DNA from: Planctomycetota bacterium
GTDB lineage: Bacteria > Planctomycetota > UBA8742 > UBA2392
Direction of reading: 5' to 3'
NCBI GenBank assembly: GCA_020425605.1
Contig: JAGQRH010000005.1
Coordinates: 75,850 to 139,849, forward strand
DNA length: 64,000 bases
Positions 7,055 through 36,553 of the stretch are shown here, in pieces. Both the position numbers and the translations under genes were made by a program. The stretch's first letter is position 1. The number at the start of each line of letters is the position of its first letter. The notes below the pieces were generated by a model. That model worked only from the letters and a program-made list of their open reading frames with translations, had not been told where the DNA came from and ran no database searches.

Positions 7055-7651
7055 ATGGACCAGTTGATCGTCGGCGTGAACCTGTTTGCGATCTGCCTTG
7101 TACTGGCGCTGATGGAGGTGCACATCGAGGGCCCGCACGGCTGGGCCACGACGCTGCCCACCTGGCGCTTCGACCGCCCGTGGCTGCGCAAGCTGACCAA
7201 CGGCAAGCCGATCACCGGCTATCACGTCTACATCAACCTGGTCATCCTCGGCTTCCTGCACTATCCGCTGATCGCCTCCAAATGGACCTTCGTGGGCGAG
7301 CTGCGCATCATCAGCCAGTACCTGATGGTCGCGGTCTGGTGGGATTTCCTCTGGTTCGTCTGCAACCCGTACTTCGGCGTGCGACGCTTCAAGAGCAAGA
7401 ACGTCTGGTGGCACAAACAGTGGATCCTCGGCGTGCCGATGGACTACCCGATGGGCACGATCAGCAGCGCGGCCGTGTGGTTCTGGGCCGACTGGCTGCG
7501 CCCGGCGTCCGGCACCAGCATTATCGAGTGGGCCAAGCTGCTCGGCATCGTCGTCGGCCTGACCGCGCTCACGGCCGTGTTCATGCATCTGATCGGCCGA
7601 CACAAACCCGGCACACCAATGCCCCCGAGCGAAGAGCCCAAACCCGCCTAG
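7055..7651 (+). CDS. integral membrane protein, Trp-rich (hypothetical)
   Basis: About 5 hydrophobic segments (VNLFAICLVLALM, YINLVILGFLHYPLI, YLMVAVWWDFLWFV, AAVWFWADWL, LLGIVVGLTALTAVF). Confidence 0.6.
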   Translation: MDQLIVGVNLFAICLVLALMEVHIEGPHGWATTLPTWRFDRPWLRKLTNGKPITGYHVYINLVILGFLHYPLIASKWTFVGELRIISQYLMVAVWWDFLWFVCNPYFGVRRFKSKNVWWHKQWILGVPMDYPMGTISSAAVWFWADWLRPASGTSIIEWAKLLGIVVGLTALTAVFMHLIGRHKPGTPMPPSEEPKPA

Positions 7652-8178
7652 GCCGCGTGGGCCGGGTCTCGTCCTTTGGCTTTCTCCGGCTGCGGTTGTG
7701 GCTGTACGGGCGCGGGCGTCTTTGCCTGATTCGTTGGCATGTCGGCGCGGCGGGCGTTCGGCTGTGGCGCGGGCGGTTTGACGCTGTCGGGCTGGGCCGT
7801 GTCTTCAGCCTGCGTTTCGGGCGCGTGCTCGGCCGCGCTTTCGGGCTGCTCGTCCTCGGTTGCATTCAGGATGAACTCGTCTTCGGCCGCGGCGACCATG
7901 GCGTCGCGCTTTTCGCGCAGTGTGCGGACCAGCATCACGGCGCGCAGCCCGACACTTGGCGGGACCTGCCAGCGTGGGGGGTTGCCGTCGGGGATCGGTT
8001 TGCGCCTGCGCTCAGCGAGTTCGGCCTCGTAAAGCTGCGCGGTCGAGCCGACCACACGGATTTCATCCAGCAGCTCGCGCAGGCGCGGATTGATCATCTC
8101 AAGCGCCCGCTCACGCGCCACGGAATCGGCCTCAGTAGCAGGTTTGGCAGGCCAGCGGCGATAACGTTTGTTTGACAT
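7648..8178 (-). CDS. hypothetical protein with acidic/Pro-rich C-terminal half
   Basis: Only long ORF here with non-shadow composition. Converges on the 7055 gene with a 4-nt overlap. Confidence 0.45.
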   Translation of the reverse strand: MSNKRYRRWPAKPATEADSVARERALEMINPRLRELLDEIRVVGSTAQLYEAELAERRRKPIPDGNPPRWQVPPSVGLRAVMLVRTLREKRDAMVAAAEDEFILNATEDEQPESAAEHAPETQAEDTAQPDSVKPPAPQPNARRADMPTNQAKTPAPVQPQPQPEKAKGRDPAHAA

Positions 8179-8196: not shown

Positions 8197-8985
8197 TCAC
8201 ACCCAAAGCCTACACCACCATTGCGACATCCAGGGCCGCGTTGGACGTACCCAACCACCCGCAAAGCCGCCCTGGTGGCGGAAAGAAAAAACTTCGACAG
8301 CTTCTTGGGCGACCACCGTAGGGGCGGCCTCATGCCCGCCCGACGAAGCCTCAACGAAGTCGGGTGCCGGGCCTGCGTGCATCTCTGCAGCAAAGGCAAC
8401 ATCTCCCCGGGGCTTTGCTGCCAGGGTTATGCTGGCCCCGCAGGGGCGCTCTACGGTAGCCGGGGGCGTGAGCCCCCGGAGCCGGTCATGGCAAGATGGC
8501 GCGCCCAAAGGGCCGCCTAGAGCGTACCCCCCAACCGCAGACACCGAACCGTCCGCGTTCCGTTTCATTCCATGCATCGTGAGAATCTCGTCCAGTTCCT
8601 CGTCGAACGTCTTCTCCGCGTGATGCTGCTCCTGATTGCGGATGTAATCGCGAGTCCGGTCCAGCAGCGACGCGCTGACGGAAAACACGCCATACCCGTC
8701 CTGCCATCCGAATTCCTGCGTCGGCCATTTCTCATGAATCCAGCGTGAAGTATTGGTCTTGATGTCGCGCATCAGGTCGGCGATCGATTGGGTCATCGAC
8801 AGCCCGATCAGCAGGTGCACGTGGTCGGCTATGCCGCCGCCCTCGATCAGCTTGCACTGGCGTTTGTCGCAGACGCCGTGGATGTACTTGAAGAGCTCAA
8901 GCTTGATGTGGGGCGTAATCAGCGGTTTGCGGTCTTTGCAGGCGAAGACCGCGTGGATGCGGACGCTGTGGTAGGTGGAGCCCAT
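8197..8985 (-). mobile_element. IS200/IS605-type Y1 (HUH) transposase, REP-associated (RAYT)-like
   Basis: HUH motif ADHVHLLIG and catalytic Tyr motif RDYIRNQEQHH. Only the first ~150 codons look like the fold. The ORF then runs ~110 more codons through GC-rich hairpins. Confidence 0.8.
8320..8480. repeat. cluster of GC-rich hairpins (REP-like) inside the 3' third of the RAYT ORF
   Basis: GGGCGG/CCGCCC 8322-8341. GCAGCAAAG/CTTTGCTGC 8388-8421. GCCCC-gca-GGGGC 8435-8447. CCGGGGGC-GTGA-GCCCCCGG 8460-8479. Confidence 0.4.
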
Positions 8986-9098
8986 CGCGGGATTGTAGCC
9001 TGCAGGCGGCCCTCCGGGCGCGCGATTTCGCGGCTAACCGGTCCGGGGGCTCAGATGCTCGAACCACCAAAATCCCGGCGTTGACGCACCGGGCTATT

Positions 9099-9281
9099 TC
9101 ATGTTGCCGCCTCCAGCGGCTGCTGGTTTATGCGGTGGGACTGCACGGCCCGTCCCAGCAGCATGCCCGCAGACGCCGGGCTCTTGATGCCGAGGATGTA
9201 GCGTGCGTAGAACTTGATCGGGCAGGTCATGTAGGCAGTGAGCTTGCTCGGGCTCAGCTGCGTGAGTATTCGTGTTTCCAT
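9099..9281 (-). pseudogene. N-terminal fragment of a PD-(D/E)XK (RecB/Cas4-like) nuclease
   Basis: 60-aa ORF. LSPSKLTAYMTCPIKFYARYILGIK resembles the conserved N-terminal Cys-containing helix of PD-(D/E)XK nuclease family proteins, but no nuclease core follows. Confidence 0.35.
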
Positions 9282-21132: not shown

Positions 21133-22260
21133 ATGGACCTCAAAGGTCGTCTACAGACGCTCGCTACCCTCGAATCTCAATACCCTCACGTCCTTTCCGT
21201 TTACCTGCGGTGCAGGGATGGCGGGCGTGACCGTCGCAAAGAGAACCTGATCTTTATCAAGAACCGGGCCGCCGAAATCGAGCGCGTACTCGGCGACGAC
21301 AAACGCGGATTGGACTTCCTTCGCGAAGGACTTGCGCAGGTTGAACTGATTCGCAAGCAGGATCTGAACAACAACGTGATCGGGCTGGCGCTCTTCCTTC
21401 AGGGCGGCAAGGTAATCGACCGGTTTGAAACTTCGATTCCCTTTGAAGACCAGATGGCGTATCGGCGCTTTCCATTCGTCAGCCAGCTTGCGTTCATCGG
21501 CGAGGAATTCGAGCCTTACGCGGTCGTCCATCTGGACAGCCGCAGCGCACGGGTCTTCGAGATCGCACTGGGTGAGCTGGTGGACAGCAGCGACATCAAG
21601 AGCGAAGTTCACCGTCGTATTCACCGGGGCGGATGGTCGCAAATGCGCTTCCAGCGCGGCATTGAGGGTGAGAAACACGCCCACATCCAGGAGGTAGCGC
21701 AGGCGCTCACGGACCTGGTCGGCAAGCATCGCTACAAGCGCATCGTGGTCGTAGGGCCGGACAAGTCACGCAGTATTCTTCGTGAGTGCCTGACGCCGGA
21801 TGTCGCGCGACGTGTTATCGACGGCGAACGCGTGGACTCCCGAGCGGCGGATCATGAGCTGTTGCAGACAGCTGTCGACTACTTCCGCACCGCCGAGGAC
21901 ACGGAAGAGAACACAAAAGTTGAACGCGTGATCCGCGAGATTCACTCAAGCACCATGGGTGTGTCGGGGCTTGAGGATACGCTCACGTACCTCGCCCGCG
22001 GTCAGGCGTATGAAGTACTGCTGCCGGCCGACCTGAAGATGCAGGGTGCACAATGCAACGCCTGCGGCATGATCTTCAAGGAACAGAGCAGCACCTGCTA
22101 CGCCTGCGACAGCAAGGACATCTCGGGTGTTGACCTGAAGGAAGTGGTCACGCGTACGGCGGTGAAGTTCGGCACCAAGCTGGAGTTCATCAAGGACCAC
22201 GATTTCAAGACCAAGCTGGGCGGCGCCGCGGCGTTGTTGCGCAGCCCGCGCATGAGCTAG
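21133..22260 (+). CDS. bacterial eRF1/Pelota-like protein (baeRF1-type) with Zn-ribbon insert
   Basis: AGGAGA RBS. VHRRIHRGGWSQMRFQRGIE parallels the eRF1 HGRGGQSALRFARLR loop. C-domain has CNAC-X12-CYAC and ends GGAAALLR as in eRF1/Pelota. Confidence 0.65.
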   Translation: MDLKGRLQTLATLESQYPHVLSVYLRCRDGGRDRRKENLIFIKNRAAEIERVLGDDKRGLDFLREGLAQVELIRKQDLNNNVIGLALFLQGGKVIDRFETSIPFEDQMAYRRFPFVSQLAFIGEEFEPYAVVHLDSRSARVFEIALGELVDSSDIKSEVHRRIHRGGWSQMRFQRGIEGEKHAHIQEVAQALTDLVGKHRYKRIVVVGPDKSRSILRECLTPDVARRVIDGERVDSRAADHELLQTAVDYFRTAEDTEENTKVERVIREIHSSTMGVSGLEDTLTYLARGQAYEVLLPADLKMQGAQCNACGMIFKEQSSTCYACDSKDISGVDLKEVVTRTAVKFGTKLEFIKDHDFKTKLGGAAALLRSPRMS

Positions 22261-29591: not shown

Positions 29592-30197
29592 TTACTTCGC
29601 TTCGTCCTTCTCGACGTCTTCGCCCAGTTCACGGGCGATCTCGCGGTCGAGCTCCTCGCGCGTCAGCTTCTTTCGCTCTTCGGTGTTCACGCCGATCATC
29701 TGGTCGATCTCGTCGTCCGTGACCAGTTGCTCGCCGGCGACGCTGTCTGTCTCAAACAGTGAGTCCTTGCTCATGTCCAGGAAGAGGTCCATGCGCTGGC
29801 TCATGGTGTCGGCCTGCATCATGGCGTGCTCGAAGTTCTTCTGCGTCGCCTCAAGATCGGTAGTCTTGTAGACCTCGTTGATGCTCTTGCTGACCACGCC
29901 CATGGATTCAGCGAAGACGCTGAAACTCTCGGCCTGGTTCTTCATCTGGAAGGCCGCCTCGATCGTCAGCAACTGGCGCTCAAGCATGCGGCGCTGGAAC
30001 GTGGTGGCCTTGAGCGACTTGCGCACGAACGCGAGCTGGTCAGCCGCGCCGATGCGTGCGGCCTCGCGGGCCTTGCCCAGCCATTCTTCTTCGCTCTTGC
30101 TGAGCTCTTTCATCTGGCGGCGGATGCGCTGGATGCCCTTCTTGATTTCCATATCGCGCGCGATGCGTCGCTCTTCTTTGGATTTGAATATGCCCAT
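29592..30197 (-). CDS. ESCRT-III/PspA-superfamily protein C (201 aa)
   Basis: MGIFKSK N-terminus. Basic helical hairpin region (EEWLGKAREAARIGAADQLAFVRKSLKATTFQRRMLERQL). Acidic C-terminal half ending in an amphipathic helix (REELDREIARELGED). Last gene of the operon. Confidence 0.6.
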   Translation of the reverse strand: MGIFKSKEERRIARDMEIKKGIQRIRRQMKELSKSEEEWLGKAREAARIGAADQLAFVRKSLKATTFQRRMLERQLLTIEAAFQMKNQAESFSVFAESMGVVSKSINEVYKTTDLEATQKNFEHAMMQADTMSQRMDLFLDMSKDSLFETDSVAGEQLVTDDEIDQMIGVNTEERKKLTREELDREIARELGEDVEKDEAK

Positions 30198-30259: not shown

Positions 30260-31078
30260 TCATTCCACGACGTGGTAGTTGGCTTCGCCTTGTGCGAGGC
30301 GCTTCTTCGTGTGGCTGGTCATACGTTCGGACTTGCGGATCGCTGCCTCGATGAAGTCGCGGTGATCGCGTAGTCGGCCGCCCAGGTAGGCACGGGCGAA
30401 GCGGGCCCTGTCAGTCGCCGTCACCAGTGACGCGGGAGCCGAATGCAGCAGCGCGGCAACGTCTTTCACGCGCCAGCGCCGGGTTACGCGCTTGCGGATG
30501 TCAGCCCGGTTCAGGTCCGTCACGTACAGCTCGTCGTCGTGGCCCACGCGAATATGCACGAGGTAGAAATCGCGATGATTCACCCCGCCGTCATGCATGC
30601 GGCGCAGGATCCGACCCAGCTCAACGGTGAGCTGCCAGCGGCGCGCGGGCTGCGGGCACTCAGTGAATTCTTCCAGCAACAGCTTCTGCAGGCTTCTCGG
30701 TGCGCTTAGCCCGACGGTCAGCAGCGCCGCGCGTTTGACGACACCGCTCTCGACTTCCTCAATGCACGCGGCGGGGCGCATGGTCGGCACGCGCAGTTCG
30801 TGCAGTCGTTGAAGCACGTGCCATTCGCGTGAGGCGGGGGAATCGAAACCCCGGGCGAACAGGCCCGCAAAACGGGGCTCAGGCTCGATCTCGCGGTATA
30901 GCTTCAGGTAGAGGGTAGTCCCGGCGGCGGTGACCAACCGGTAGGTCTGTCGCGACTCGAGCCGGGCCTTGATGGTTTCAAGGTCGCCCCTGGCGGCCAG
31001 CGCATTGACATCCAGCAGGCCCTCGGACTCCAGCTCGGAACGCAGCGCGGGGTCAACCAGCAGGCGGGTCTCTCGCAT
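30260..31078 (-). CDS. protein-kinase-like enzyme, Kdo/WaaP (lipopolysaccharide kinase) family
   Basis: TLYLKLYRE (N-lobe Lys), catalytic loop GVNHRDFYLVHIRV, metal-binding LYVTDLNRA. Confidence 0.7.
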   Translation of the reverse strand: MRETRLLVDPALRSELESEGLLDVNALAARGDLETIKARLESRQTYRLVTAAGTTLYLKLYREIEPEPRFAGLFARGFDSPASREWHVLQRLHELRVPTMRPAACIEEVESGVVKRAALLTVGLSAPRSLQKLLLEEFTECPQPARRWQLTVELGRILRRMHDGGVNHRDFYLVHIRVGHDDELYVTDLNRADIRKRVTRRWRVKDVAALLHSAPASLVTATDRARFARAYLGGRLRDHRDFIEAAIRKSERMTSHTKKRLAQGEANYHVVE

Positions 31079-31084
31079 CAGCGG

Positions 31085-32323
31085 CTAGTCGTCCTCAACG
31101 CTCCAGTCGAGGTAGCGTTGCATCTCCTGCGGGCTGGTGCCCGGCCGGATGTAGGTCTTTGCGCGTTCAAAGTCCGCGAGTGTCAGCGGGCGTACTTTCA
31201 CCTGGTAGTTGCGCGTAGCGGCGAGTCCGGTGTCGATCAGGTCGGGCAGGTCCTCGTTCAACTGGCCGATCATCTGCGACGTCGCCTGCTTGCAGAGGCG
31301 CTCGATTTCTCGGCCGGAATAGCCGACCGTGTCGTCGATCAGTTCCTTGAGGTCAAACTCAAGCTGATAGCCCTTCTTCAGAAGCTGGATGCTGAGGATG
31401 GCTTCACGTGTCTCTTCATCGGGCAGCGGAATCAGGATCTGCTTCTCGAAGCGGGACATCACGGCTGCGTCAATTTCCCACGGCCGGTTGGTTGCGGCGA
31501 TGGTGAGCACGAAGATGTCGCTGCGGCCTTTCTCGGCCAGCCCGTCAAGCTCGGCCAAAATGGTCGAAAGAATGCGGCGCTCTGCCCCGGTCTGCTCGGA
31601 GTCGCGGTTGCTGGTCAGTGACTCGAATTCGTCGAGGAACACGACGCTGGGGCTGTTGTCGCGCGCGGCGCCATAGATCTCGCTGATGATCTTGCTGCTT
31701 TCGCCGAAATACTTGCTCAGCACGCCGCTGACTTTCACGTTGAAGAACAGCGCCTGGCCTTCGGTGGTGACCTTCAGGCTATTGCTGGTGGCCGCTGCAA
31801 GCAGGGTCTTGCCGGTGCCCGGCGGGCCGTAGAACAGCATGTTTCGGAAGGTCGTGATCTTCACGCCCTCGGGTGGCTTCGCGAGCGACAGGCCGAGCGT
31901 GTACTTGATGTCGCGCTTGGTTTCTTCAAGTCCACCGATATCGTCCCAGGTGATCGTGCTGGTGTGGACCAGCGCCGAGACGGCTTCGCTGATGTTGCTT
32001 TCGGGCTCGCCAGCGGTGGTTTCGTGGCTGCGATTCTCATCCACGTGGCTGCTGGGGGGAGACGGCAGCTTGGCCTTGCCGCTTTCCGGCTTCTCGATGC
32101 CGACTTCGCGCAGGCGCCGGGCGAAATCTCGGTACTCGATTGCCTTGCGCTTCCGGGCGTACTCCATGCTGCGCGACTGGGCGTGCTCGGCAAACTTGAA
32201 CATGGTCTTGCTGGCCGACTCGAAGTTCGCGGCGGCCGTCTCCGAATCGCCTGCCTTCCAGGCCATCTTGGCCTTGTGCAGGGCGTCGTCGCAGGCGCGT
32301 TTGAGTTTGGGTCCTAAGTCCAT
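31085..32323 (-). CDS. MIT-domain + single AAA+ ATPase, Vps4/CdvC-like
   Basis: N-terminal three-helix segment (LKRACDDALHKAKMAWKAGDSETAAANFESASKTMFKFAE...RKRKAIEYRDFARRLRE). Walker A GPPGTGKT, pore loop SKYFGES, Walker B VVFLDEFES, SRH ATNRPWEIDAAVMSRFEKQILIPLPDEETR. Confidence 0.8.
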   Translation of the reverse strand: MDLGPKLKRACDDALHKAKMAWKAGDSETAAANFESASKTMFKFAEHAQSRSMEYARKRKAIEYRDFARRLREVGIEKPESGKAKLPSPPSSHVDENRSHETTAGEPESNISEAVSALVHTSTITWDDIGGLEETKRDIKYTLGLSLAKPPEGVKITTFRNMLFYGPPGTGKTLLAAATSNSLKVTTEGQALFFNVKVSGVLSKYFGESSKIISEIYGAARDNSPSVVFLDEFESLTSNRDSEQTGAERRILSTILAELDGLAEKGRSDIFVLTIAATNRPWEIDAAVMSRFEKQILIPLPDEETREAILSIQLLKKGYQLEFDLKELIDDTVGYSGREIERLCKQATSQMIGQLNEDLPDLIDTGLAATRNYQVKVRPLTLADFERAKTYIRPGTSPQEMQRYLDWSVEDD

Positions 32324-32450: not shown

Positions 32451-32503
32451 CAGTAGCTCACAGGTTCCAAGTCCACTACGGAAGCATGCGCTCCCGAACG
32501 GCC

Positions 32504-33121
32504 CTAAATTGTTCCTTCTTCGGATTCAAGCTTGGCGCGCAACTCCGTTTCGGCCTTGAGTGCCTGGTCAAAGTCGCCGCCTTCTTCGGCTTCGTTGATG
32601 GTGTCGATCTCGGACAGGAAGCGCACCTTCTCAGGATCGCTGTCGTCCATGTCACCCTCGACCTCAAGCCCAAGGTCATCGAGCGTTGCATTCAGCTCGT
32701 CCATGTAGGCTTCCTCGTCGATCTGCTGCAGGGCCAGCTTGGCATCGAGCCCGCTGCTGCGGATACGCTGCAGGAGCTTGTTGACGCCGTCCTTGTCTTT
32801 GCGTTTCTCGAGACGCTCGAGACCGCGCACGTACTTCTTGAGCGCGATACCCTCAAGGTTGCTGACCTTGGCGGCCCGGCGCTGGAAGGCGAAGTCGTAC
32901 TTGATGTCCTTCAGCTCTTCCCAGACGTAGTCGACTTCGATGCTGTTGCCCTCGCGGCGCGCGCGCTTGATCTGTTCAATCAGCGACGCCTGGCGCGTGC
33001 TGAGCTTGCGCATCTCCATGAAATACTTGCGGCGCTCGCGCTCGACCTCGCGCAGCTTGACCTTCAGCTTCCGCAGGTCGACCTTGCTGCCGAACAGGCT
33101 GGCAAAGAATTCGGATACCAT
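32504..33121 (-). CDS. ESCRT-III/Snf7-like protein B (205 aa)
   Basis: Snf7/CHMP4-like N-terminus MVSEFFASLFGSK. Basic hairpin region. Acidic C-terminal half. Terminal ETELRAKLESEE resembles a MIM1 helix. Confidence 0.6.
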   Translation of the reverse strand: MVSEFFASLFGSKVDLRKLKVKLREVERERRKYFMEMRKLSTRQASLIEQIKRARREGNSIEVDYVWEELKDIKYDFAFQRRAAKVSNLEGIALKKYVRGLERLEKRKDKDGVNKLLQRIRSSGLDAKLALQQIDEEAYMDELNATLDDLGLEVEGDMDDSDPEKVRFLSEIDTINEAEEGGDFDQALKAETELRAKLESEEGTI

Positions 33122-33124
33122 CGG

Positions 33125-33796
33125 CTACTCCACCTGCGCTTCCGGCTCATTCCGGGAATTGTCTTCTTCGTCATCGCGCGCGCTTTCGCGGCGCATGATT
33201 TCTTCCTCGATCTCGCGCAGCTCGGCATCGGTCGTGCGCGCGGGCGGGGGCGCTTCGCCCATGATTTCCTTTTCCAGCTTGCGCAGCTCGTCCTTGTCCT
33301 TGTTCGTGAGCACGTCGTCGCGGCTCTGGATCACGCCTTCGCCGGTATTGACCGAATCGCGGAACTTCTCCATGCCTTCTTCGAAATCGAGCATCACGCG
33401 TTCCACCACGCTCTGTTCGATCCCGCGCAGGTCCATTGCTTCCATGGCCTGGATCTTGCCGACCAGGTTCATGTGCAGCTCGATGTTCTTGTTCAGGATG
33501 TCGGCCTTCAGCTTCAGGTTTCCCATCTGCGTGCGCGTGCGTTTGATCTGAAGCAGCACGAACTCTTTCTCGCGGTCGCCGACGCGGCCGGACTTGATGT
33601 TCTCCATGCTCGCGCGCTCAGACAGCTCCAGGCGCGCGAGTTCCTGGCGCGTCTTGCGCAGCTCGACTTCGTTCTGGGTGATCAGCTCGTCGAGGTGCTC
33701 TAGCATCTCCCGCGTGGAATGGGCGTCCTTGATCACCTGCTCGGCGTCGCCGGAAGTGCCTCGCAGCATCTGCTTGATTTGGTCCAGTAGGCTCAT
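33125..33796 (-). CDS. ESCRT-III/PspA-superfamily protein A (223 aa)
   Basis: ATG directly follows the upstream TGA (TGAATG). MSLLDQIKQML N-terminus, long heptad helices, acidic tail with DAELREIEEEIMRRE. Confidence 0.55.
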   Translation of the reverse strand: MSLLDQIKQMLRGTSGDAEQVIKDAHSTREMLEHLDELITQNEVELRKTRQELARLELSERASMENIKSGRVGDREKEFVLLQIKRTRTQMGNLKLKADILNKNIELHMNLVGKIQAMEAMDLRGIEQSVVERVMLDFEEGMEKFRDSVNTGEGVIQSRDDVLTNKDKDELRKLEKEIMGEAPPPARTTDAELREIEEEIMRRESARDDEEDNSRNEPEAQVE

Positions 33797-34573
33797 TCAG
33801 GCCCTTACACTTTCAAATCGGTCGCGCTGGATAATCAGGTCGCCGCCCACCGTCTTTACATCTATGCCCGGTGTACGCTCGGCGTACAGCATCGCGCGGT
33901 CTGTGACAAGGTCACGTCCCACGGCCGTGCGAGTGGCGAGGTCATCGATCAGGATAAATCCGCCCGGTTCCTTCAGCTCATCGGCTGCAGAAAGCGCGGC
34001 ATCGACACGTGCGACCTTCTGGTCGATGGGCTCCGGGTCGAAGAGATTCTCAAACAAGGCAGGCAGGATCGCGCCATCTCCCGGCGGAGTGACAGACCAG
34101 CCCGGATCGGCATACTCAATCAGCGCCGCGCGCCAGTTCGGGCCGCCGCTAAGGGCTCGCATCAACTCGTCGCTGTGGCCGACTTCAATACTGTCGCGGA
34201 CGCCGGCTATGCCCATGATGAAGTAGATGTCCGGCCGAAGTGGCGCGAGTGACCAGCGGACAGTTTCGTGGATTGTCTCGGGTGTAAAGCGGCGTTTTGT
34301 GAACGAAAAGTCCAGCACGACGCATACCTTGACGGTGGCCAGGCCCAGCATCGGCTTATGCAGCAGGCCGACGCTCTCTCGGCGGGTAAAGTTGCCCGTG
34401 CCTGAAGGAGAAAGGTCACCTGAGCGGTAACTGCGGCGGCTGACTCGATTTGGGTCAAAATCGTAGAGGGAACCTTCGGCCGGATGAGGCAACATGCGCT
34501 GGCGCACAATGCGCGATTCGAGCCCGGAAAAGAGGCTCTGCATGGCAGACAGCGAATTGCTTCGATCGGTCAT
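33797..34573 (-). CDS. hypothetical protein, first gene of the ESCRT-like operon (possible degenerate vWA-like alpha/beta fold)
   Basis: ORF 33797..35200 trimmed to ATG 34573 because the upstream part overlaps the divergent ABC gene. VCVVLDFSFTKR is reminiscent of a DxSxS/T MIDAS strand. Confidence 0.5.
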   Translation of the reverse strand: MTDRSNSLSAMQSLFSGLESRIVRQRMLPHPAEGSLYDFDPNRVSRRSYRSGDLSPSGTGNFTRRESVGLLHKPMLGLATVKVCVVLDFSFTKRRFTPETIHETVRWSLAPLRPDIYFIMGIAGVRDSIEVGHSDELMRALSGGPNWRAALIEYADPGWSVTPPGDGAILPALFENLFDPEPIDQKVARVDAALSAADELKEPGGFILIDDLATRTAVGRDLVTDRAMLYAERTPGIDVKTVGGDLIIQRDRFESVRA

Positions 34574-34603
34574 AAGTCCCTGTCGATGGCCGACTTCGCA
34601 TTG

Positions 34604-34609
34604 AGTATA
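34604..34609 (-). promoter_or_regulatory. candidate -10 box (TATACT) for the ESCRT-like operon
   Basis: The only AT-rich patch in the 132-nt divergent intergenic region. About 30 nt upstream of ATG 34573. The -35 is weak. Confidence 0.25.
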
Positions 34610-34705
34610 GCTAATTTTGTCGTCGTTACAGGGGCGGCGAGTTGCGGTCGGCCCGGCACGGCCCACAATGGGGCGCAGCCCGGGAGGCGACTTGGAAGGT
34701 AGCAG

Positions 34706-36553
34706 TTGGCGGAAACGTATCACGACGACGATGAATTTCTGGGCAAGGCGTACGACGCCAGGCTGATCAAGCGCCTGATTCCCTACGCGCGTCCATACCT
34801 CGGCCTGGTTCTGTTCGGGACGTTTTTCATGCTGTTCGCGGCCGCATGCGAACTTGGCATCCCGCTCATTGTTAAGGAAACCATCAACGGTCCTTTCACG
34901 GTGCTGGGAGAATCCGCCACCGGGGAGGCTGCAAAAGAGGCGGCCTGGACGAAACTGGGCTGGTTCGCGTTTGGATTCATGGGGCTGGTTGTCATCCAGT
35001 TCTTTGCGCGTTTCGGCAACACCTACCTGTTCCAGAAGCTCGGGCAGAAGGCAGTGCTGGATTTGCGACAGGACGCCTATGCGCACATCCAGCGCTTGCC
35101 ATTGCGGTTCTTTGATCGAAACCCCGTAGGCCGACTTGTCACGCGCGTCACCAGTGACGTGGAAGCGATCGGCGAAGTGTTCGCTTCCGGGCTCGTCCAA
35201 CTCGCCGGTGATGCGCTGACGGTGCTTGGAGCCTTGGCCCTGATGCTGATGCTGAGCTGGCAGCTTGCGCTGTTTGTCGTGGGCGCAATCCCGGTCATGG
35301 CACTGCTGACGTGGATTTTCCGCGGGCGTGCACGAGGCTCATTCCGTGAAATGCGGGTCAAGCTTGCCGTCGTGAACAGCTTCCTGAACGAGACGATCCA
35401 GGGTTGGCGCATCACCCGCATTTTCGGCACCGAGAAACAGATGGCGAAGAAGTTTGATGAACGCAGTGCCGACTACCGCGAGTCAACGTACCGAACAGTC
35501 TTCAACTTCAGCATCTTCTTCCCGATCGTCGAAATCGCGGGAACCATCTGCGTGATGCTGGTCGTGTGGTGGGGGACGCGCAGCATTTTCAACCAGACGC
35601 TCGACTACGGCACCTTCTTCGCCTTCTTCCTCTACACACCGATGATGTTCCGGCCGATCCGGGAAATGAGCGAAAAGTACAACGTGCTGCAGAGCGCGAT
35701 GGCCAGCGCCGAGCGGCTGTTCCGGATTCTTGATACCAAGAACGATGTTGCCGACCCGGCCGAGGCGAAGGCGCCGCCCATCACCGGCGAAATCGAGTTC
35801 CGCGACGTGTGGTTCAGCTACAACGCAACGGATGACAGCGAGCCCGAATGGGTGTTGAAGGGCGTGAGCTTCAAGGTGCCCAGCGGCTCATCCATGGCGC
35901 TGGTGGGTGCGACCGGCAGTGGCAAGACAACCATCATCAGCCTGTTGATGCGTTTCTACGACATCCAGAAGGGCAGCATTCTCATTGATGGCGTGGACAT
36001 CCGCGAAATGTCCAAGGCGCACCTGCGCGAGTCCTTCAGCCTTGTGCTGCAGGACGTGTTCTTGTTTGCGGGCACAGTGCTGGACAACGTGCGCCTCGGG
36101 CATTCAGAGATCTCACGCGAGCAGGTTGAGAAGGCGGCACGCATTGTCCACGCGCACGAGTTCATCATGGGCCTCAGGGATGGTTACGACGCGGTCGTTG
36201 CCGAACGCGGGGCGACCTTCAGCGCCGGGCAGCGACAACTACTGGCATTCGCGCGGGCGCTGGCATTTGAGCCGAAGATTCTGGTGCTGGACGAGGCCAC
36301 ATCGAACATAGACAGCGAAACCGAGGCGCTGATTCAGGATGCGCTGACGCAGATGATGCACGGACGCACGGCCGTCGTCGTCGCCCACCGCCTCAGCACC
36401 ATTACCGACAGCGACAACATTCTCGTGCTGCATAAGGGGCAGGTCGTTGAACAAGGCAGCCATGCCGAGTTGCTCCAGCAGGGCGGTCGTTACGCCAAGC
36501 TCTACCAGCTGCAGTTCGCCAACGGCACCAAAGCCGAAACCAAGGCGGGGTAG
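34706..36553 (+). CDS. ABC exporter, fused permease/ATPase (MsbA/type I exporter-like)
   Basis: TTG start. Six N-terminal TMs. Walker A GATGSGKTT, signature FSAGQRQLLAFARAL, Walker B ILVLDEATS, H-loop VVAHRLST. Confidence 0.9.
   Translation: MAETYHDDDEFLGKAYDARLIKRLIPYARPYLGLVLFGTFFMLFAAACELGIPLIVKETINGPFTVLGESATGEAAKEAAWTKLGWFAFGFMGLVVIQFFARFGNTYLFQKLGQKAVLDLRQDAYAHIQRLPLRFFDRNPVGRLVTRVTSDVEAIGEVFASGLVQLAGDALTVLGALALMLMLSWQLALFVVGAIPVMALLTWIFRGRARGSFREMRVKLAVVNSFLNETIQGWRITRIFGTEKQMAKKFDERSADYRESTYRTVFNFSIFFPIVEIAGTICVMLVVWWGTRSIFNQTLDYGTFFAFFLYTPMMFRPIREMSEKYNVLQSAMASAERLFRILDTKNDVADPAEAKAPPITGEIEFRDVWFSYNATDDSEPEWVLKGVSFKVPSGSSMALVGATGSGKTTIISLLMRFYDIQKGSILIDGVDIREMSKAHLRESFSLVLQDVFLFAGTVLDNVRLGHSEISREQVEKAARIVHAHEFIMGLRDGYDAVVAERGATFSAGQRQLLAFARALAFEPKILVLDEATSNIDSETEALIQDALTQMMHGRTAVVVAHRLSTITDSDNILVLHKGQVVEQGSHAELLQQGGRYAKLYQLQFANGTKAETKAG

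Follow-up and report, generated by a model that had tools for sequence, protein, structure and literature searches.

Several small ESCRT-III-type genes are clustered in archaeal Cdv systems, and in the Asgard systems of ESCRT-IIIA/B and Vps4, with a single-ring AAA ATPase that carries an MIT-type N-terminal domain of three helices and a C-terminal helix. In the subunits of these systems, the N-terminus is hydrophobic, the hairpin core basic and the tail acidic, and an amphipathic helix is present at the C-terminus. Bacteria possess their own branch of the ESCRT-III superfamily, PspA and Vipp1 (IM30), which is characterized by an amphipathic alpha0 helix and a long hairpin. According to Makarova et al., the ESCRT-III/Vps4 pairing is missing from bacteria, and a 2025 Current Opinion review states that a Vps4-like ATPase 'appears absent in bacteria' (PMC7619361). 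Ravi et al. (2024; PMC11237479, Text S2.2) report a Vps4-like AAA+ ATPase in Planctomycetes, Verrucomicrobia, Cyanobacteria, Bacteroidetes and Nitrospirae, which they read as membrane-proximal, and describe operons in which snf7 is replaced by a protein that combines TPRs with six transmembrane segments (TPR-6TM). The same study lists occasional bacterial neighbourhoods of Snf7/PspA with an AAA+ ATPase, of different composition, and neighbourhoods of PspA, Snf7 and a third coiled-coil protein in Deltaproteobacteria and Bacteroidetes. Here, we analyse an operon within a 64,000-nt stretch of a Planctomycetota bacterium (assembly GCA_020425605.1, contig JAGQRH010000005.1, positions 75,850 to 139,849), hereafter called the window, and conclude that it probably encodes a bacterial ESCRT-III/Vps4-like membrane-remodelling module.

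The operon comprises six genes arranged head to tail on the minus strand, in the order lead gene, A, B, AAA ATPase, Kdo/WaaP-fold kinase and C, where A, B and C denote the three small proteins and the lead gene is the first gene (Table 1). The locus and dozens like it thereby unite, in one conserved bacterial operon, a Snf7-family gene, two further genes that appear to be ESCRT-III-like to different degrees, and a meiotic-clade AAA ATPase with an MIT-like domain. The composition and the subunit features recall those of the archaeal systems. Unlike in the latter, the host is a bacterium, only C is recognizable by sequence as Snf7, a kinase is embedded in the cluster, and CdvA, an ESCRT-II winged-helix gene and a winged-helix fusion are missing. 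In contrast to the Vps4-like operons of Ravi et al., the planctomycete ATPase is found with a Snf7-family gene and two predicted hairpin proteins, and the cluster has no TPR-6TM gene. No description of a planctomycete cluster of this composition was found in the literature searched.

Interpretation of the whole cluster is anchored by protein C, which the preliminary description of this DNA had overlooked and which is the sole small operon protein that Pfam recognizes as a member of the Snf7 family. The window copy matches Pfam Snf7 (PF03357) with E = 3.1e-4 and 20.9 bits, under the gathering score of 27.3 bits. Among 34 family members, 23 match Snf7 at E ≤ 0.01 (best 1e-6), and several of the 512 homologues of C carry a precomputed PF03357 domain. 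Snf7 and CHMP2A were the best PDB profile matches of C, and in an hhalign comparison with the yeast Snf7 core, where C served as positive control, it aligned over 80 columns with P = 4e-4, a score attained by one of 100 block shuffles. The N-terminus, MGxFKSKEERR, is followed by a basic core and an acidic tail, with a mean charge of +10.1 for the N-terminal and -15.3 for the C-terminal half. At its C-terminus, C forms an LDxEIxxGLxxI helix, whose pattern (D/E)xxIxxxLxxI occurs in 22 of 39 members compared to 5.4 expected from shuffling. Judged by these sequence matches, C is a Snf7-family protein, i.e., ESCRT-III proper.

Protein B shares the charge architecture of C. The preliminary description had portrayed the window copy as starting with a hydrophobic motif and as passing from a basic to an acidic half, and both features extend to the whole family. 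The N-terminal consensus of B is MGFFxxLF, with F10 at least 90% conserved and a mean hydrophobicity of 0.50, and the charges of the two halves (+9 and -16 in the window copy, +9.7 and -16.3 as family means) are close to those of C and correspond to the charge dipole of ESCRT-III. We take the MGFFxxLF start of B and the MGxFKSK start of C to resemble CHMP N-termini; unlike in eukaryotic ESCRT-III, there is no N-myristoylation in bacteria. The C-terminal tail of B had been likened to the MIT-interacting motif MIM1. Its core, [DE]xx[LIVM]xx[RK][LIVMF], is present in 26 of 47 orthologues versus 2.7 expected after shuffling, and the full motif with the trailing L(K/R) in none of the 47. The likeness to the MIM1 of eukaryotic CHMP/Vps2 proteins thus holds only for a conserved partial motif, as the ExxLxxKL of B corresponds to the first two-thirds of the consensus. 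In this respect B differs from eukaryotic Snf7/CHMP4 and from the subunits of the archaeal systems.

Comparison of the B and C profiles by hhalign yielded P = 3.4e-4, improving to 1.5e-4 with enriched local alignments, over 52–53 columns and at a probability of 38–52%, which lies under the usual threshold of 90%. The real score of 33.3 compares with 16.3 for the reversed template and was reached by none of 100 column shuffles and none of 100 seven-residue block shuffles (maximum 31.4). The aligned region covers the end of alpha1, the hairpin tip, where G57 of B is placed opposite G50 of C, and the start of alpha2, and this turn was independently predicted by AlphaFold 2 (AF2). In the AF2 model of B (mean predicted local distance difference test score, pLDDT, 77.5; predicted template modelling score, pTM, 0.66), helices span residues 3–9, 16–56, 60–106, 110–122, 125–130, 136–149, 163–180 and 184–199. 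A hairpin of 41 and 47 residues with a pLDDT above 90 leads into three short helices, which a disordered, acidic linker separates from two confidently predicted helices at the C-terminus; helix 3–9 is of low confidence and helix 184–199 has a pLDDT of ~90. The predicted order fits that of an ESCRT-III protein, with alpha0, an alpha1-alpha2/3 hairpin, short helices and a C-terminal tail helix. When the model was searched against the PDB with Foldseek, CdvB and CHMP2A/3 were its closest neighbours, none of them significant (best E = 0.16). The top 50 contained CdvB, CHMP2A-CHMP3, CdvB2, Loki CHMP4-7, Asgard ESCRT-IIIB, CHMP1B and many Vipp1 entries together with designed helical bundles, so that CdvB and CdvB2 of the archaeal systems are among the best structural neighbours of B.

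Curated family libraries did not recognize B: neither the window protein nor 57 diverse members matched Pfam Snf7, PspA_IM30 or an NCBIfam model, and relaxing the threshold to E ≤ 10 gave no such match in four divergent orthologues either. When 1.84 billion representatives were searched deeply with HMMER and the B profile, just 78 proteins were recovered, none belonging to a known family. Unlike C, B showed no direct match to the yeast Snf7 core by hhalign and stayed at background, as it did against E. coli PspA; the latter is a low-power test, in which A, B and C all scored at background. A diverse PspA profile built from plasmids was abandoned, 441 of its 462 matches falling in the 90–95% identity band and being overwhelmingly from Enterobacteriaceae. 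PDB sequence-profile searches with four A and B alignments retrieved no ESCRT-III, PspA or Vipp1 chain and returned only noise (mitofusin, cytochrome b562, LGE1). Taken together, the link to C, the charge distribution, the terminal motifs, the predicted helix order and the conserved proximity of the ATPase gene give reasonable support to the idea that B is a divergent ESCRT-III-like protein. For A, the same part of the preliminary reading can be retained only tentatively.

Protein A starts with the family-wide consensus MSLLxRIKxM, corresponding to AF2 helix 3–10, and the hydrophobic moment of its N-terminal helix (0.74) exceeds that of residues 2–12 of E. coli PspA (0.57). The same charge asymmetry as in B had been ascribed to A. 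Its N-terminal half turned out to be neutral on average (+1.0), and only the C-terminal half is acidic (-13.4). The MIM1 core expression occurs in one of 37 A members versus 1.6 expected; instead, a D-x-E-L-x-x-I/L-E pattern is partly conserved at the C-terminus, within AF2 helix 190–213. The AF2 model (pLDDT 74, pTM 0.49) predicts helices at residues 3–10, 17–24, 28–68, 74–124, 129–151, 165–178 and 190–213, i.e., two short N-terminal helices, a hairpin of 41 and 51 residues and three further helices. This topology is compatible with the PspA/Vipp1 fold of an amphipathic alpha0, a long alpha1-alpha2/3 hairpin, alpha4 and alpha5. Its top three Foldseek matches were Vipp1 (7o3w, E = 0.031), PspA (7abk, E = 0.048) and Synechocystis PspA (E = 0.11), all with low TM-scores. 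None of the 71 homologues of A carries a Pfam domain, A itself has no Snf7, PspA_IM30 or NCBIfam match, and PspA_IM30 is silent in six divergent orthologues even at E ≤ 10. Against both E. coli PspA and the yeast Snf7 core, A remained at background by hhalign, 24 of 60 shuffles equalling its score with the former. The rank order of the fold matches supports a superfamily assignment for A and for B and is inconclusive, and we regard A as ESCRT-III-superfamily-like only tentatively.

As an observation on A itself, sub-threshold matches to Pfam HAAS (PF22564) recurred in three of six divergent orthologues on the same helix, at residues ~123–161 (window positions ~33314–33430), with E = 0.0037–0.19. 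HAAS is a helix-turn-helix (HTH)-associated helical signalling domain defined in phage shock protein (PSP) systems.

A and B had been introduced as paralogues. Their hhalign P value fell from 0.068 to 0.055, 0.009 and 0.0025 as the profiles were enriched (real score 23.7), and the two profiles align collinearly through ~100 columns, beginning at alpha0 and ending with alpha2/3; three of 100 block shuffles equalled the score of this match. Because this match is marginal (P = 0.0025–0.009) and a match between A and C is absent, paralogy is not shown. A and B are at best very distant superfamily relatives, A being more PspA-like and B more Snf7-like. This raises the possibility, which we consider open to serious argument if short of probable, that A is a divergent PspA/Vipp1 branch and B a divergent Snf7 branch, so that anciently separated lineages rather than recent paralogues meet in one operon. 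The split between the fold searches points in this direction, with Vipp1 and two PspA structures leading for A, and CdvB and CHMP2A/3 for B, as do the marginal A–B similarity, the resemblance of the A N-terminus (MSLLxRIKxM, in some members MALFDKFKALF) to the MGIFSRFADIV of E. coli PspA, and the PspA-Snf7 co-neighbourhoods already described (Ravi et al. 2024, PMC11237479). Such a placement of A is opposed by the background-level comparison with E. coli PspA, the silence of PspA_IM30 in the divergent orthologues and the non-significant E-values of the fold matches. The locus also departs from bacterial PspA/Vipp1 systems in that A, B and C lack a PspA_IM30 signature and that PspB, PspC, PspF, LiaI and Toastrack partners are missing.

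Homologous loci were also fetched and are referred to by L-numbers, such as L001. In total, 112 homologues of B and 71 of A were found at 39–100% identity, nearly all in Planctomycetota metagenome-assembled genomes (MAGs) or unnamed metagenome contigs. In homologous loci A and B are always adjacent and in the same order, and in each of the 24 loci fetched, family-profile searches located all three of A, B and C, save where a contig ends. The order lead-A-B-AAA-C is retained at 39–50% identity of B. Wherever a locus is long enough to be informative, B is found together with the ATPase and C, and the AAA gene lies directly downstream of B or one gene away. A profile search of genome contigs with A returned close relatives only (16 loci, of which 13 are from Planctomycetota/Planctomycetaceae MAGs and one is from an 'uncultured bacterium'). 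The most distant locus, L025, belongs to a MAG that is labelled Pseudomonadota; it contains, in this order, B, AAA, C and a second AAA gene, and A is absent. The invariant core is therefore B-ATPase-C, with A as an addition of the main clade. A and B are real, conserved genes, and the operon is chromosomal and specific to a clade of uncultured Planctomycetota.

Some members of the B family (P0345–P0374, 275–684 aa) begin with the B core and continue into variable extensions of considerable length, among them repeated CxxC zinc-ribbon arrays (DnaJ_CXXCXGXG-like), long coiled coils and low-complexity repeats, and have no MIM1-like tail. These Cys-rich or coiled-coil extensions are silent on function. 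In the distant locus L026, which has no adjacent AAA gene, a 222-aa coiled-coil protein (7329–7997) is encoded upstream of the B homologue; it starts with MSFLSWLFG, a Snf7-style N-terminus, and matches none of the A, B and C profiles.

Alternatively, A and B could be lineage-specific, non-polymerising coiled-coil adaptors that recruit or regulate C and the ATPase, in the manner of CdvA or Vta1/LIP5. The lack of a significant match of either protein to an ESCRT-III or PspA model or structure suits such a role, and so do the designed bundles and other coiled coils mixed into the fold matches, the missing basic core of A and its absence from the most distant locus, and the weak recurrent HAAS matches on its helix 4. 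This explanation has to contend, however, with a B–C profile match that is located on the hairpin and exceeds all 200 shuffled controls, with the charge architecture and N-terminal motif style that B shares with C, and with the observation that ESCRT-III-superfamily entries, not adaptors, dominate the top of both fold searches. We consider it unlikely.

The fourth gene encodes a protein with one AAA domain (Pfam AAA, E = 3.8e-34; Vps4_C, E = 0.011, under the gathering score). In this protein, a linker connects an MIT-like N-domain of three helices to the AAA domain, which is of meiotic-clade type and is followed by a C-terminal helix. Reading of the translation showed an intact Walker A (GPPGTGKT), Walker B (FLDEFE) and pore loop (KYFGES), and the protein is collinear with Vps4B from residue 7 to 353. 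When the N-terminal 110 residues were searched as a single sequence, all six PDB matches were Vps4B MIT domains, albeit weak ones (E = 0.039–1.1). An 11-sequence profile of the same domain matched TPR-type repeats strongly and the MIT domain of Sulfolobus CdvC (2w2u) at E = 0.02, and the Pfam MIT model is silent on the region. Compared to the archaeal ATPases, the MIT-like domain is highly divergent and, judged by length, a beta-domain is missing. Over their full length, the C-terminal 143 aa can be aligned with spastin and katanin at 66–67 bits, whereas the p97 domains reach 38–42 bits each over ~82 aa and need a 2-residue gap at the RxGR motif. The meiotic clade includes Vps4, and by sequence the C-terminal half of the ATPase is closest to this clade. 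At the level of the whole protein, NCBIfam models score 169 bits for CDC48, 166 for PAN and 152 for CdvC (E = 2.3e-44). Vps4 orthology is not established, because these scores do not separate CdvC from Cdc48/PAN, and we therefore describe the architecture as Vps4-like. Such a partner also sets the cluster apart from bacterial PSP systems, whose ATPase is the sigma-54 activator PspF and not a classical meiotic-clade AAA protein with an MIT-like domain. Within the second region of homology (residues ~289–295, AVMSRFEKQ), the ATPase has a single arginine in S-R-F-E-K, as does its L003 orthologue (LSRFDKK). Vps4, katanin and spastin carry RR or RRR at this position. The single arginine may affect ATP hydrolysis between subunits.

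Distant clusters contain a second AAA ATPase (L001 9250–13228, L003 12418–16493, L022 8853–10067, L023 12261–13433, L025 10526–11333). This ATPase has a PGRFD-type motif, and its L022 and L023 copies match Vps4_C weakly. Its gene is succeeded in L001 and L003 by those for a ~665-aa protein and a ~285-aa protein with multiple transmembrane segments. A tblastn search at E ≤ 1e-3 found none of these three proteins in the 64-kb window. In L023, a small ParE-toxin gene pair (8731–9221) is located between B and the ATPase; the B-ATPase junction therefore tolerates insertions.

The kinase-fold gene matches Pfam Kdo with E = 9e-27 and NCBIfam RfaP with E = 2.2e-36, the latter under the RfaP cut-off. 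Since Hanks-type Ser/Thr kinases (Pkinase with RDD or FHA) occupy the equivalent neighbourhood in distant loci, a protein kinase is a recurrent partner of the cluster, which recalls the phospho-regulation of eukaryotic ESCRT-III. The lead gene has no Pfam match. Its C-terminal ~150 aa form a conserved domain that matches no known family and shares homology with the L001 and L003 lead proteins (E = 8e-9). Distant orthologues of 476–493 aa carry an N-terminal MerR-type HTH (L003 5598–7028; L022 3856–5337), with weak MerR Pfam matches in both and, for L003, a match to a MerR-family regulator in the PDB (5gpe, E = 4e-4). An HTH-bearing lead protein in some lineages recalls the transcription-factor partners of PSP systems.

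These features suggest how the module could work. C, as a canonical Snf7 protein, and B, as a highly divergent ESCRT-III-like one, would attach to the cytoplasmic membrane by means of the hydrophobic N-termini and the basic alpha1-alpha2 hairpins, and their acidic C-terminal halves would hold them off until activation. Once activated, the two may polymerise together, and the resulting filaments would bend or constrict the membrane. The ATPase hexamer would then be recruited, its MIT-like domain recognizing the C-terminal helices of C and of B, the latter with its half-MIM1, and threading of subunits through the KYFGES pore loops would remodel or disassemble the polymer. A, with a putative PspA/Vipp1-like hairpin fold and an amphipathic N-terminal helix, could be an accessory subunit that either co-assembles or nucleates and regulates, and that the most distant lineage can do without. 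Regulation or targeting might fall to the kinase and to the lead protein, the latter sometimes fused to an HTH.

If the module works as proposed, it would offer a tractable bacterial model of ATP-coupled ESCRT-III remodelling and a candidate membrane-scission machine in a phylum with unusual division and endomembranes, and A and B would be two new protein families overlooked by current HMM (hidden Markov model) libraries. A more far-reaching version holds that the operon encodes a complete native ESCRT-III/Vps4 machine for ATP-driven membrane scission, in which a canonical Snf7 subunit and two cryptic ones, A and B, would work with a dedicated kinase and a meiotic-clade ATPase that bears an MIT domain. 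We rate this version as rather unlikely. Were it true, the machine might serve cell division or budding (the best-studied classes of the phylum lack FtsZ), or else the formation of intracytoplasmic membranes or vesicles. Whether the ESCRT-III/Vps4 pairing predates the archaeal ancestor or reached a bacterial lineage with complex endomembranes by transfer would then have to be asked again; phylogeny of the ATPase and of C makes ancient inheritance versus archaea-to-bacteria transfer testable.

A number of results weigh against a membrane-remodelling module. Neither A nor B is significant against any curated ESCRT-III/PspA model or solved structure, by sequence or by fold, and neither AF2 model has a Foldseek match in the PDB at E ≤ 1e-3. 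Helical hairpins are a common fold, and designed bundles are among the top fold matches of B. The match of B to C is short (~52 columns) with its hhalign probability of 38–52%, the link between A and B is marginal, and A compares with C at P = 0.088 and a score of 17.8 that 23 of 100 block shuffles equal. Moreover, A lacks the basic N-terminal half typical of ESCRT-III. For the ATPase, the MIT call is weak, as the Pfam model misses the N-domain and the profile mostly matches TPR repeats; the whole-domain score does not favour CdvC over Cdc48 or PAN; and a single arginine stands where Vps4 has its RR(R) finger motif. Finally, every source sequence is from a MAG. The absence of a significant Snf7 or PspA_IM30 profile match had been named in advance as unfavourable to the ESCRT-III-like reading and counts against it here, but the proteins are not the generic coiled coils that had been named along with it, and their context is not a neutral one.

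A further explanation dispenses with membrane remodelling and regards the cluster as a stress-response, defence or protein-quality-control system, in which the ATPase would unfold or extract proteins, the kinases would signal, and A and B would be substrates or sensors. Cross-matches of the ATPase domain to the defence ATPases IetA/IteA and to TRIP13, the kinases that are always nearby and the ParE toxin gene inserted in the L023 cluster could be taken in its favour. The cross-matches are, however, limited to the generic AAA core, and PADLOC and PHROGs yielded no match for any of the other five proteins. The invariant partner is a Snf7-family gene, the cluster is native in GC content, and its chromosomal setting is stable across one clade. 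Accordingly, we consider this explanation very improbable. The more specific idea of a defence island or prophage was rejected, since PADLOC matched only the generic AAA core, PHROGs gave nothing meaningful, and the GC content of the cluster is uniform and equal to that of its flanks.

Table 1 Operon features, with positions given along the 64,000-nt window.
Feature	Position	Strand	Description
Lead gene	33797..34573	-	~258 aa; start uncertain, ATG at 34573 most plausible
Protein A	33125..33796	-	223 aa; orphan helical-hairpin protein, possibly PspA/Vipp1-like
N-terminal amphipathic helix of A	33764..33796	-	MSLLDQIKQML
C-terminal helix of A	33185..33229	-	DAELREIEEEIMRRE, residues 190-204; amphipathic helix of LxxIExEL type, not MIM1
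Protein B	32504..33121	-	205 aa; probable divergent ESCRT-III-like subunit with basic hairpin core and acidic tail
N-terminal hydrophobic motif of B	33083..33121	-	MVSEFFASLFGSK; candidate alpha0 membrane-insertion element
C-terminal helix of B	32516..32551	-	ETELRAKLESEE, residues 191-202; partial MIM1-like motif, (D/E)xxLxx(R/K)L
AAA ATPase	31085..32323	-	412 aa; Vps4-like architecture
MIT-like N-terminal domain of ATPase	32084..32323	-	residues 1-80
Kdo/WaaP-family protein-kinase-fold gene	30260..31078	-	between ATPase and C
Protein C	29592..30197	-	201 aa; Snf7-family

In the deposited annotation (Planctomycetota MAG, locus tags KDB90_042xx), A and B are each listed as 'hypothetical protein'. 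Their positions, minus-strand orientation and sequences agree with the preliminary description, as do the junctions. Direct reading of the sequence shows that the TGA of the lead gene abuts the ATG of A ('cctgaATGagc') and that 3 nt separate the TAG of A from the ATG of B ('gagTAGccgATGgta'), with a Shine-Dalgarno-like GGTGGAG stretch just upstream. For the lead gene, a 467-aa open reading frame (ORF; 33797–35200) starting with TTG was discarded as a gene model, as its first ~165 codons are antisense to an ABC-transporter gene on the other strand. On the plus strand, a 405-aa ORF (32486–33703) runs opposite nearly the whole of A and B. Since conservation is seen for the minus-strand genes, this ORF is very probably one of the shadow ORFs that are typical of GC-rich DNA.

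The cluster is flanked on the plus strand by housekeeping genes without relation to it, which encode MurD, an SRPBCC protein and an ABC exporter. A tie to the dcw division cluster through the adjacent MurD gene was considered and dismissed, as MurD stands alone among unrelated genes of the opposite strand. Some 7 kb from the cluster, at window positions 21133–22260 on the plus strand, lies a baeRF family 10 gene (E = 4e-29; eRF1 domain 2 weak). This gene adds a further 'eukaryote-like' fold to the genome and shows no evident link to the operon.

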